Origin: a virus
Lineage: Duplodnaviria; Heunggongvirae; Uroviricota; Caudoviricetes
Reading direction: 5' to 3' (one strand)
Virus record (IMG/VR): IMGVR_UViG_2609459830_000022
Length of the DNA: 16,063 nt
The notes under the pieces are model-generated. The model did not search any database. It saw nothing but the letters and a program-made list of their open reading frames with translations, and was not told the origin of the DNA. A program made the translations under genes and the position numbers. Positions within the stretch are counted from its first letter, which is position 1; each line of letters starts with the position of its first letter. This document shows positions 12,603 to 14,753 of this stretch, one piece after another.

Positions 12603-12817
12603 AACCCCCCCCCATTTTCACAATCAGCAACAAGAATATTTTTAGCGTCATTCAGCGACCGCGTTGCGATGTATCGGATACATTCCAGGGCGAACGTTGT
12701 CCGGTCTTTCTGTTCTTCTCCCTGCGCAAGCTCTGCCGTGCATTCAATATCAATAAGCGCGTGCATCAGCGTAGTGAGCGCGGCGGCGGCTGCGTCCGGT
12801 GTGGTTTTATTGCACAT
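12575..12817 (-). CDS. Small hypothetical protein (80 aa from ATG 12817), third paralog
   Basis: ATG at 12817 preceded by a strong AGGAGG Shine-Dalgarno. Segment TPDAAAAALTTL resembles VPDDAADALSSI of the 73-aa gene. Its C-terminus (GGG) reads through the G9 tract. Confidence 0.4.
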   Translation of the reverse strand: MCNKTTPDAAAAALTTLMHALIDIECTAELAQGEEQKDRTTFALECIRYIATRSLNDAKNILVADCENGGGLCVMIVLIP

Positions 12818-12980
12818 GGCACACCTCCTGACGAATACGGGCGACAAAAATCAGATGTGCGTGCGGCAGCTGTGCACGTGCTTCGCGCTCAGTGGCAGCG
12901 GTAACGGTGAATATTGCAATACTGTCTGTCAGGCACTGCATAAAGCGCCAGACAAAATAAGGGCGTGTGAATACAGCCAT
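12807..12980 (-). CDS. Icd-like small protein (host cell-division-inhibitor-like), copy B, 57 aa
   Basis: ATG at 12980 with TAGGAGCC Shine-Dalgarno. Motif FVWRF ... TAATEREARAQLP ... LIFVARIRQ is shared with copy A. Family assignment is from memory of the conserved motif. Confidence 0.45.
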   Translation of the reverse strand: MAVFTRPYFVWRFMQCLTDSIAIFTVTAATEREARAQLPHAHLIFVARIRQEVCHVQ

Positions 12981-13266
12981 GTGAAAGGCTCCTACAGTAA
13001 TTTTAAGGAGTCTCGCTACTACGCTGTCAAACATGGTGGCGAGACGTAACAGGGTTGACAGACTGGCACTGTAGAGACCAGCGAGCGCAAAGGCTCCCCC
13101 GTTACGCCCCGCCATAATGCGGGTATGGGTAGGTTTACGGACACAAAAAAACCGCATATCGGAATGTAAGCGGCTGTCCGCTACAGTATTCAGGCTGTCA
13201 AACCCGGTCGCCATGTGGGCGACGGGGGAAGCATACAGCCCCGTGATAATTTTTTGCAAGCGGTTT

Positions 13267-13464
13267 TTACGCATGATGTGACCCCTGACGAATACGGGCG
13301 GCAAATACAGCAACACAACCTGACGGGCAACGGCTACGCGCTTCGCGTTCCGTCCAGGCGGTTACGTGGATGATTTGAGATTCTCCGGCACTCAGTGCCA
13401 GAAAACGCCACACAAAGGCCGTTTGTGTGTGTACAAGGTGTGGTATATGATTTACGGCAACCAT
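13267..13464 (-). CDS. Icd-like small protein, copy A, 65 aa
   Basis: ATG at 13464 with TAGGAGCC Shine-Dalgarno. Motif FVWRF ... TAWTEREARSRCP ... AVFAARIRQ. Confidence 0.5.
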   Translation of the reverse strand: MVAVNHIPHLVHTQTAFVWRFLALSAGESQIIHVTAWTEREARSRCPSGCVAVFAARIRQGSHHA

Positions 13465-13537
13465 AACGGCTCCTAGTTTACGTTGTTGGTTAGAAGCCCT
13501 GCGAGTGGTAATGACACTTGCGGGGCTTTGCTTTTTT
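13458..13537 (+). ncRNA. Candidate small cis-antisense RNA overlapping the start and Shine-Dalgarno of Icd-like copy A
   Basis: Plus-strand promoter-like TTGTGT (13423-13428), 17-nt spacer, TATGAT (13446-13451). Plus-strand-specific terminator at 13496-13537. No plus-strand ORF lies in between. Confidence 0.3.
13496..13537 (+). terminator. Rho-independent terminator, plus-strand specific
   Basis: 12-bp stem gccctgcgagtg / cacttgcggggc (two G-U wobbles on the plus RNA, which are C-A and U-C mismatches on the minus RNA), 7-nt loop, then TTTGCTTTTTT. Confidence 0.6.
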
Positions 13538-13553
13538 AAGTGCTCTTGTGTTA

Positions 13554-13600
13554 AGGTGACCACCTAACAATGGAAAGGCTAATTCAATAGGTGACCACTT
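13554..13600. promoter_or_regulatory. Two operator-like palindromes AGGTGACCACCT (13554-13565) and AGGTGACCACTT (13589-13600) in the divergent control region
   Basis: Inverted-repeat arms AGGTG/CACCT with centres 35 bp apart. The second overlaps the Shine-Dalgarno and TTG start of the RHH gene. A TTGACA hexamer on the minus strand (13605-13600) lies between them. Confidence 0.5.
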
Positions 13601-13790
13601 GTCAACAATCAAACGCGATAAAAGCCCTAAAGGGGACGGGCAATCCCCACAATTCAGAATGCGAATTTCTCCAGAGCTAAAAGAGCAATTCGACAAAGAA
13701 GCACAGAGCGACGGCATAAGCCTAGCCAACTGGCTTAAAGAGTTGGGGCGCACTGAACTAAAGCGGCGCGGCATAGAACCCAAAGGATAA
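13599..13790 (+). CDS. Arc/Mnt-like ribbon-helix-helix DNA-binding protein (63 aa, TTG start)
   Basis: SPQFRMRISPELKEQFDKEAQSDGISLANWLKELG matches the beta-strand / helix A / helix B pattern of P22 Arc (PQFNLRWPREVLDLVRKVAEENGRSVNSEIYQRV). Start must be upstream of the PQF strand; TTG at 13599 has AGGTGA 4 nt upstream. Confidence 0.55.
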   Translation: MSTIKRDKSPKGDGQSPQFRMRISPELKEQFDKEAQSDGISLANWLKELGRTELKRRGIEPKG

Positions 13791-13847
13791 AAACTATCAG
13801 CGCCGTGGTGTGAGGTATTACGGCGCATTGCTATGCAGGACAACACA

Positions 13848-14021
13848 ATGACCGATAAAGAATTGACCAAAACATTATCACCGGCACGGAAAAGACGGCG
13901 CAGAAAGATAGAGCATGAATCAGAAAGATTCGCGCCATGTGCTTTTGCCCTTGAGCAATTCCTTAAAGAGTATAGGGAAAAGCGCTCATTGCAGGTATGG
14001 CAACGAACTGAACCAGACTGA
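13848..14021 (+). CDS. Small basic hypothetical protein (57 aa from ATG 13848; ORF track starts at ATG 13833)
   Basis: ORF downstream of the RHH gene in the same plus-strand unit. AGGA 8 nt before ATG 13848. Arg/Lys-rich N-terminal half. No recognised family. Confidence 0.3.
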   Translation: MTDKELTKTLSPARKRRRRKIEHESERFAPCAFALEQFLKEYREKRSLQVWQRTEPD

Positions 14022-14115
14022 TTGCATTGCCCACCAGCCTGATAGCGGCTATCATCCCCGTGCTTATGTTTGGGATCACATACACATAAGGCGCAGCGGG
14101 TTATCTGTTCAGAAA

Positions 14116-14144
14116 GGCGGCTCCATTTCGGGGCCGCTTTTTTT
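14116..14144 (+). terminator. Rho-independent terminator closing the plus-strand RHH unit
   Basis: ggcggctcc-atttc-ggggccgc followed by T7. The stem has one G-U wobble on the plus RNA that is a mismatch on the minus RNA. Confidence 0.7.
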
Positions 14145-14290
14145 ATGCCTGAAAAACCCCAATTTTGTGGTTTTCCAGTCTCACCAGGGCGAACGAATCC
14201 CCGCCCACGTTCTGGCGTATATTCAATCTTCATGGTTATAGCTCTGTGTTCAGATGATTGATGTGTGGCGGCTGCGTGCCGCCAGCGTGA

Positions 14291-14479
14291 TTAATGAACT
14301 GCCTTGCAGCTATCCTTCCAGGCCAGAACCTCGGATAAAGACCAGCCAACGGAACGACCGCCAAGTTTACGACGTGATGGGAATTGTCCGGCCTTTTCCA
14401 GGCGGTAGCGACACGTACGGCTAAGGCCGGTTAGTTTTTCGCATTCTTTTTCACGTATAAACCGATCAGTGCTTAACAC
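14291..14479 (-). CDS. alpA: AlpA-family phage/island regulatory protein (62 aa, GTG start)
   Basis: LTGLSRTCRYRLEKAGQFPSRRKLGGRSVGWSLSEVLAWK matches the AlpA helix-turn-helix family pattern. A G7 tract serves as the Shine-Dalgarno. Located directly after the integrase gene, as in P4-like and PICI elements. Confidence 0.8.
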   Translation of the reverse strand: MLSTDRFIREKECEKLTGLSRTCRYRLEKAGQFPSRRKLGGRSVGWSLSEVLAWKDSCKAVH

Positions 14480-14520
14480 TATTGCCCCCCCTTTCGTTTC
14501 TTAAAGAGTCATCAGGTGTC

Positions 14521-14543
14521 TTATTGTGTCGTATTGTTCCCGC
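14521..14543. repeat. Phased TTGTT repeat cluster, site D (2 units, TTGT on plus strand)
   Basis: ttATTGTGTCgtATTGTTCCcgc, near-identical to the reverse complement of site A. It lies 45-65 bp upstream of the alpA start. Confidence 0.55.
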
Positions 14544-14753
14544 TAGAGTGATGAATGGCAAATATTGAGGATGTATGATTTACAGAAAATGAAACAGTAA
14601 GAATAAAATCTTTTAAATTCATGTTAATACAAAGGCATAAAATATTGTTTCATGCCTTTTTTCTCGCTCTTTAAAGAGTGATTCGCTAGTGTATAAAAAA
14701 CCAGTGACACATTAAAAATCAGCCACTTATAAATCTGTATGCTTTTTCGCCTC

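Follow-up and report, generated by a model that had tools for sequence, protein, structure and literature searches.

The window, as we call the whole stretch of DNA analyzed here, is 16,063 nucleotides (nt) of a Caudoviricetes record in IMG/VR, IMGVR_UViG_2609459830_000022. It encodes an integrase, AlpA, a RepA-like helicase, SSB, an HK97-type capsid protein, an S78 prohead protease, a portal protein and a large terminase. The same gene set is found in phage-inducible chromosomal islands of the capsid-forming, EcCIEDL933 type (bioRxiv 10.1101/2022.09.08.507074), and its gene content suggests that the window is one of them. Our subject is a short segment, 13423-13537, where a promoter-like sequence and a terminator hairpin on the plus strand lie opposite the start of a minus-strand gene for an Icd-like protein. 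An earlier note on this DNA had proposed that a small antisense RNA is encoded there. We found that the segment belongs to a conserved family of structured modules, whose RNA would probably silence the gene that it faces.

The gene is Icd-like copy A. It runs from 13464 to 13267 on the minus strand and encodes 65 amino acids (aa) that match NCBIfam NF033153 (phage_ICD_like) at 64.7 bits; proteins identical to it carry the RefSeq name 'host cell division inhibitor Icd-like protein'. Its ATG lies at 13464..13462 and its Shine–Dalgarno sequence, AGGAG, at 13474..13470. Icd-like A heads an early operon that continues on the minus strand with a c4-a1b1 motif, a C4 RNA, a second Icd-like gene (copy B) and the replication genes.

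Opposite its leader stands an intrinsic terminator (13493..13537, plus strand), recognized by terminator scan, RNA folding and covariation, with a 15-bp stem, a 7-nt loop and the tail GCUUUUUU. The stem pairs 13493-13507 with 13515-13529 around a loop at 13508-13514, eight of its 15 pairs being G-C and three G·U, and the tail at 13530-13537 reads GCTTTTTT. In the scan of the whole 16-kb window, this plus-strand hairpin was the top-ranked terminator-like site, and it has the G+C-rich stem, short loop and U tract on the transcribed strand of a rho-independent terminator. The hairpin has a folding energy of -27.0 kcal/mol (z -7.1) as plus-strand RNA. Read from the minus strand it reaches -16.3 kcal/mol (z -4.6), its G·U wobbles become A·C mismatches and no U tract follows the stem. 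The earlier note had described a strong terminator on the plus strand only, with no plus-strand gene upstream of it, and was right on both counts. It had also seen that the wobbles turn into mismatches on the minus strand, though it counted two of them and there are three.

Read from the plus strand, the segment would yield an RNA of ~78 nt (13459..13537), its start placed at an invariant A and its end in the U tract. The predicted anatomy is simple. A 5′ hairpin (13459..13491; a predicted fold with a conserved closing helix) holds the anti-Shine–Dalgarno CUCCU (13470-13474) in its loop, 13469-13480, and covers the anti-start CAU (13462-13464) with its stem. Then come the linker TGGTTAGA (13487..13494; TCTAACCA on the sense strand), made up of invariant columns in an alignment described below, and the terminator. 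For an 83-nt candidate RNA the folding energy is -35.5 kcal/mol (z -5.3); its complement has -21.5 kcal/mol (z -2.4). The Shine–Dalgarno sequence (13474..13470) and the start codon (13464..13462) of Icd-like A both fall inside the predicted RNA, just as the earlier note had said, which is the layout of a cis-antisense repressor or antitoxin.

What lifts this above a pattern in one sequence is comparison. Eighty viral-contig loci were fetched with the Icd-like A protein as query, and a pattern scan for the conserved flanks brought in 120 more. The hairpin stands at the same place in 79 of the 80 protein-fetched loci. The linker TGGTTAGA is likewise invariant in 79 of these 80, fetched by the Icd-like protein alone; it served as a query in the pattern scan, so its invariance among the pattern-scan loci is partly by construction. 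The hairpin's conserved flanks are this linker and GA[A/C]GCCC...GGGC[T/G]T[T/C], while its upper stem and loop are highly divergent: pooling 203 loci gave 101 distinct hairpin-and-tail variants. Homology between loci stops directly past the T-rich tail, which marks the module boundary, and U-rich tails are kept across the family (a mean of 5 U in 10) despite the unrelated sequence past the stem. Taken in the sense direction, the module consists of the hairpin, TCTAACCA, a short Shine–Dalgarno hairpin and ATGGCT, in this order. The first genes behind it include many kinds of Icd-like protein, HNH/NUMOD4-like and GIY-YIG-like proteins, endonuclease VII and zinc-ribbon proteins, and on metagenomic phage contigs the module comes directly after capsid or head genes. 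The module does lie opposite an Icd-like start, but it is not specific to Icd, being found before HNH, GIY-YIG, endonuclease VII and zinc-ribbon genes of phages and satellites too.

An alignment of 46 diverse copies (A2) served to build a covariance model, R1. RNAalifold on A2 returned a closing helix, GCCA/UGGU, around the 5′ domain, followed by the terminator hairpin. Pairing is kept in 96.7% of A2 cells, compared with 85.4% in shuffles and ~40% with slid partners; 77 cells are changed on both sides versus 20.5 in shuffles, and none of 500 shuffles reached the observed value. The R1 alignment of 86 distinct sequences gave 97.6% of cells paired (shuffles ~85.5%, slid partners ~40%) and 138 double-changed cells versus 37, again reached in 0 of 500 shuffles. 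Within the terminator hairpin, 7 of 13 pairs change on both sides while 96-99% of cells remain paired, and 98.8% of cells retain the closing helix GCCA/UGGU. Since the MAFFT alignment of the 5′ hairpin is out of structural register, covariation was scored for just the closing helix and the terminator, and the support for the 5′ hairpin comes from per-sequence folds. Across the family these give a two-hairpin RNA whose 5′ hairpin usually has CUCC or CCUC in its 7-nt loop; in 42 of 82 members the anti-Shine–Dalgarno is for the most part unpaired, and in another 11 it is partly so. The conserved linker between the two hairpins has the family form UGGUUAGA.

The wobble pairs tell us on which strand the fold is selected. 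A G·U pair in plus-strand RNA turns into an A·C mismatch in its complement. Among the paired positions of the 86 distinct sequences, 235 cells are G·U and 3 are A·C, so selection has kept the structure on the plus strand, where a transcript would be antisense to the first gene. Among the 101 variants, the plus-orientation fold is usually 5-10 kcal/mol stabler and never much less stable. R1 has one match in the window, full-length, at 13457-13540 (plus strand; 67.1 bits, E 3.5e-12), and the window copy carries the whole set of features: aGCCA, the 5′ hairpin, UGGUUAGA, the GA[A/C]GCCC...GGGC[U/G]U[U/C] hairpin, the U-rich tail and a position antisense to a gene start. The model matched 103 times in 100 of the fetched loci and 50 times in 46 further sources, and its matches are antisense to the adjoining gene wherever that gene was examined.

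The candidate antisense promoter, Pas, lies within the gene it would oppose. Its -10 hexamer, TATGAT (13446..13451), stands out by positional conservation in the family; 17 nt upstream is a weak -35-like hexamer, TTGTGT (13423..13428; 2.8 bits), which is not conserved. The earlier note had called TTGTGT-n17-TATGAT near-consensus. The sequence is present and its -10 is conserved, but with 3/6 and 5/6 matches to the sigma-70 consensus that description overstates it, and the pair is absent from the list of the general promoter scan. Its position-weight score of 9.3 bits is among about the 7 best of 96,198 positions on both strands. Taken alone, the weight-matrix score is weak promoter evidence; the comparative data rescue the -10, not the -35.

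These data come from a logo of 78 unique family members, anchored on the conserved aGCCA and not on a hexamer search. Relative to the anchor there is a T at -14 in 74 of the 78, an A at -13 in 71 and a T at -9 in 73, so that the information peaks coincide with hexamer positions 1, 2 and 6 of a -10 element (TAnnnT). G occupies promoter-numbered -14 in 63 and T promoter-numbered -15 in 38. An A precedes GCCA in 76, 7-8 nt past the -10; in the window this is A 13459. TATGAT and the family logos share what marks a sigma-70 -10, namely an A at position 2, a T at position 6 and a fixed distance to the start. Measured upstream from TGGTTAGA, -10-like hexamers cluster at 34-38 nt, with 56% at one position; smaller peaks lie at 3 nt (30%) and 20 nt (16%), and most other positions have 0-3%. 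Seventeen unique modules precede a first gene that is not Icd-like, drawn from nine unrelated protein families. A TAnnAT-type hexamer sits at the exact place in 12 of them and is shifted by 1 nt in 4, and the sequence flanking it carries no information. Neither protein-coding constraint nor simple shared descent can explain such a pattern. We regard as computationally established a conserved RNA structure, its strand and its complementarity, along with the -10 element and the terminator. The central proposal of the earlier note, an independent plus-strand RNA of ~80 nt, gains support from conservation, covariation, strand-specific wobbles and the fixed position of the -10, seen in more than 100 variants.

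The same stretch of Icd-like A contains another hairpin, on the sense strand (13409-13429, minus strand): CACACAAA-CGGCC-TTTGTGTG, then GCGTTTTCTG. The scan lists it as terminator-like. It overlaps the weak -35 of Pas and codes for a conserved HTQTAFVWRF motif.

How widespread is the module? By BLAST its subtype is present in 777 of 5,426 complete Escherichia coli genomes (~14%), O157:H7 among them; the copy in O157:H7 strain 86-24 is 99.1% identical. No RNA feature is annotated at the matches in E. coli genomes. A search of genome contigs with the Icd-like protein alignment gave one Shigella locus. Among 50,697 phage records, BLAST returned no match to the window module or to one GC-rich variant; a third variant led to Pseudomonas phage PS-1 (NC_029066, ~22499-22583; 2496-2580 of our locus L207), which R1 matches at 51.8 bits. 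There the module is antisense to the start of gp48, annotated 'endonuclease VII', next to the small terminase subunit, and has a TAGACT -10 at the expected distance. No plus-strand gene follows it in PS-1; the next gene, 13 nt after the tail, is on the opposite strand. R1 has no match in canonical phage P4 or in the CP4-57 prophage of K-12, so the module is not a general P4 feature. Nor did we find it described in the papers searched on P4-like satellites, phage-inducible islands, capsid-forming islands or phage small RNAs, and a literal-sequence search gave the same result. The RNA apparently represents an undescribed family of a well-known kind, broader than a regulator specific to Icd.

The earlier note had also linked the locus to phage P1, where RNA controls icd, and had suggested a covariance scan for C4 and IsrK on both strands. 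We used Rfam 15, scanning the whole window at the gathering threshold and 12700-14600, both strands, at E<=10. For the locus the link is right. A c4-a1b1 target motif (RF03163) lies at 13236..13187 on the minus strand, at 46.8 bits just above its gathering score of 46.7, and a C4 antisense RNA (RF01695) at 13119..13032, also on the minus strand, at 69.1 bits against a gathering score of 45. Both belong to the same sense operon as Icd-like A. The E<=10 scan adds a weak isrK-like match at 13223..13145 (minus strand), overlapping a1b1. For the candidate the link fails: the C4, c4-a1b1 and isrK (RF01394) models have no match at 13423-13537 (plus strand) in either scan, and the sole Rfam match to overlap it there, rnk_pseudo, is sub-threshold (26 bits against a gathering score of 55). 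No Rfam family was found at the module in 16 further diverse module-bearing loci. In layout too the candidate differs from C4, lying on the strand opposite icd and being complementary along its whole length instead of at two short loops. We therefore ruled it out as a C4 or IsrK relative; Rfam places the genuine C4 and a1b1 elsewhere, on the minus strand.

With c4-a1b1 and C4 flanked by two Icd-like genes, copy B (12980..12807, minus strand; 57 aa, phage_ICD_like at 53.6 bits) being downstream of C4, the satellite contains an RNA module of the P1 immI type. Outside the module described here, Rfam also finds an int-alpA RNA (43 bits; L147 7532-7600, minus strand) and an abiF RNA (55 bits; L113 1229-1265, minus strand) in related loci that bear it.

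Beyond the terminator the plus strand is occupied, contrary to the earlier statement that all neighbors are on the minus strand. A YlcI/YnfO-like gene of ribbon-helix-helix type (13599..13790), recognized from its translation and a weak HicB-family match, begins 62 nt past the terminator; a second open reading frame (ORF) follows at 13833..14021, and then a terminator at ~14112-14145 (-22.4 kcal/mol, then U7), all on the plus strand. At the corresponding position and strand, NZ_CP157162 has a 59-aa ORF annotated as YlcI/YnfO family, a likeness by position, the proteins being unaligned. Most E. coli contexts have a similar plus-strand ORF downstream of the terminator. On the minus strand, the best candidate for the sense (early-operon) promoter is TTGACA-18-TAGCCT (13605..13576; 10.6 bits, third best in the window), convergent with Pas and ~110 bp from it. 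Two putative operators, repeats of AGGTGACCAC(C/T)T set 35 nt apart (13554-13570 and 13589-13605), each hold the inverted repeat AGGTG-AC-CACCT; they overlap this promoter candidate and a candidate promoter of the ribbon-helix-helix-type gene (13528-13557). In related genomes RefSeq annotates a 247-aa minus-strand ORF (14233..13490) as a hypothetical protein. We treat it as spurious: it has no family match, its translation looks low in complexity and it overlaps the plus-strand YlcI/YnfO-type genes that RefSeq annotates elsewhere.

Our preferred reading, to which we give a probability of about 0.7, is that 13459-13537 on the plus strand is a small cis-antisense RNA that silences Icd-like A, the first early gene. 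A sigma-70 promoter, mainly the -10 TATGAT within codons 5-7 of Icd-like A, would start transcription at about A 13459. The RNA would fold into the 5′ hairpin with the anti-Shine–Dalgarno in its loop, the short conserved linker and the intrinsic terminator, perfectly complementary to the gene that opens the early operon over its 5′ leader, Shine–Dalgarno sequence and start codon. In an uninduced satellite, it would pair with leaky sense transcripts, block ribosome binding and perhaps trigger cleavage of the duplex. The potentially harmful first gene would stay off as a result. Upon induction, strong sense transcription would titrate the RNA out. Since Pas faces a likely sense promoter ~110 bp away, transcriptional interference may add to the effect, and C4 and the replication genes, which lie downstream, might also be expressed less when the first cistron is repressed. 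The production of the RNA, the position of its ends, its repressive action and the reason for it are what we infer from the sequences.

Several points weigh against this reading. The production of the RNA, its start (13459) and its 3′ end are predictions. No -35 is conserved across the family, the logos of the non-Icd-like modules included, nor is there a TG extension in the window, and the promoter may accordingly be weak or depend on activation. The U tract is interrupted in many members of the family, which makes termination efficiency uncertain. In E. coli satellites a plus-strand gene lies past the terminator, so a share of the transcripts may extend into that gene and serve its expression. 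Family members are related by descent and the R1-fitted alignment is biased toward the model structure, although the MAFFT alignment gave the same result. The toxicity of Icd-like A, finally, is an assumption taken from its family annotation.

The plus-strand gene downstream gives the chief rival its footing. Pas might mainly serve the ribbon-helix-helix-type gene, with the hairpin as an attenuator or insulator and the complementarity to Icd-like A incidental or secondary. Most E. coli-type contexts do have a plus-strand ribbon-helix-helix-like ORF that begins 8-130 nt past the hairpin pattern (~62 nt past the U tract in the window), and the window offers a single, modest promoter candidate (7.6 bits) in the interval from the terminator to that gene. 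We nonetheless consider this unlikely. The module is equally conserved where no plus-strand gene comes after it, as in PS-1, on metagenomic phage contigs with a capsid or head gene running up to the hairpin, and in tandem arrays; homology ends at the tail, and the regulators downstream are unrelated cassettes. The stem is strong (-27 kcal/mol), and no antiterminator fold is apparent in the predicted structures, among which no dedicated search was made. Still less probable, to our minds, is that the hairpin acts on the other strand, in the sense RNA as a 5′-untranslated region stabilizer, a protein-binding or nut-like site or an AlpA-type antitermination target, or else as DNA, at a recombination site or cassette boundary. 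Such a role would suit a leader, hairpin-TCTAACCA-Shine–Dalgarno-ATGGCT, that accompanies many unrelated first genes, marks mosaic boundaries and forms tandem arrays, and the sense strand can still fold the weaker hairpin of -16.3 kcal/mol (z -4.6). It sits badly with the 235:3 excess of G·U over A·C, which on the sense strand would be mismatches, and with the lack of a U tract after the hairpin there; the fixed TAnnnT, the invariant A 7-8 nt on and the U-rich tails would go unexplained.

Two specific forms of this idea were tried. UCUAACCA bears only a partial resemblance to boxA, and a nut/boxA-like or AlpA-antiterminator target on the sense RNA was rejected on the wobble asymmetry. An integron attC-like site (GTTAGAC resembling GTTRRRY) was also set aside: no inverse core site could be seen by eye, and it would leave the pattern of -10, start and U tail unexplained. 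Chance, finally, would make the hairpin and the promoter-like hexamers functionless. The -35 is poor, and against its shuffles the window has no excess of promoter-like sites (7 versus 15.7) or of terminator-like sites (24 versus 18.6). Conservation with compensatory changes, in more than 100 variants on mobile elements of two bacterial families, leaves this explanation next to no room.

More tentatively, the cis-antisense RNA may be part of something larger. Leader and antisense gene together could form a mobile 'silencing cassette' that recombines in front of hazardous genes, division inhibitors as well as HNH, GIY-YIG and endonuclease VII nucleases, in satellites and phages, with the hairpin apex as a specificity determinant that sorts co-resident satellites into RNA 'immunity' or cross-talk groups alongside C4. 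We think this possible but doubtful as a whole.

Two observations touch on it. Some satellites (L044, L048, L066, L068 and L008) carry two, possibly three, tandem copies of the module in the same orientation, ~740 bp apart, and each copy precedes its own small gene (790-872 and 1528-1611 in L044; 1679-1762 and 2427-2508 in L048); this looks like a cassette arrangement. The hairpin apex (13500-13522 in the window) is wholly different among loci whose leader and Icd-like gene are near-identical (L003, L007, L009 and others), and it assorts independently of the downstream region. Its variability could reflect a recombination hotspot, or selection for diversity or specificity.

Among known systems, the closest analogs seem to be SymR/SymE and the sar RNA of phage P22, and by analogy with them the module most likely serves as a cis-antisense repressor of Icd-like A translation. 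SymR/SymE is a type I toxin–antitoxin system of E. coli, reportedly described by Kawano et al. in 2007, in which SymR is said to be ~77-78 nt long with its promoter within the first codons of its target. The likeness to SymR extends to cis-antisense orientation, a length of ~77-78 nt, a promoter in the first codons of the target, coverage of the Shine–Dalgarno sequence and start, and a potentially harmful target. The differences are that our candidate has no Rfam match, that it faces the leading cistron of a long satellite operon and that the module is mobile and precedes many unrelated genes. In the P22 immI region, repressor genes of ribbon-helix-helix type adjoin sar, and the promoters are convergent. 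The window likewise has a ribbon-helix-helix-type gene adjoining the RNA and convergent promoters, except that this gene lies downstream on the antisense strand here and upstream on the sense strand in P22. Both are small antisense RNAs of a phage immunity or early region, and both would block translation of a gene kept off in the lysogen; sar is antisense to the ribosome-binding site of ant (PMC12197685). The target here is Icd-like and not an antirepressor, and the two have no sequence relationship.

The C4/a1b1/icd-ant system of P1 and P7 is similar in that RNA controls a gene of the icd family, and the operon in the window has a genuine C4 and a1b1 of its own. C4, however, comes from the sense transcript and acts on short a and b boxes, whereas the candidate is on the opposite strand and fully complementary. 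OOP of phage lambda, a 77-nt RNA antisense to cII, binds the 3′ end of its target and works by way of RNase III cleavage. OOP is also a short, terminator-ended phage antisense RNA whose constitutive promoter converges with the early operon; the candidate covers a translation-initiation region, in contrast to the 3′ end covered by OOP.

What might such an RNA mean for the satellites? Capsid-forming and classical E. coli phage-inducible islands have been described as controlled by AlpA (including bioRxiv 10.1101/2022.09.08.507074), and the literature we checked on these AlpA-controlled islands makes no mention of an RNA layer of control. A conserved antisense RNA on the first early gene, beside C4/a1b1 and a ribbon-helix-helix-type regulator, would add post-transcriptional control to satellite induction. 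R1 could serve to annotate the family, which is unannotated in E. coli genomes, and EcCIEDL933-type islands would be a direct test bed, if the window is of that type as its genes suggest. The presence of the module in front of phage nuclease genes suggests, beyond Icd, a general means of taming harmful genes.

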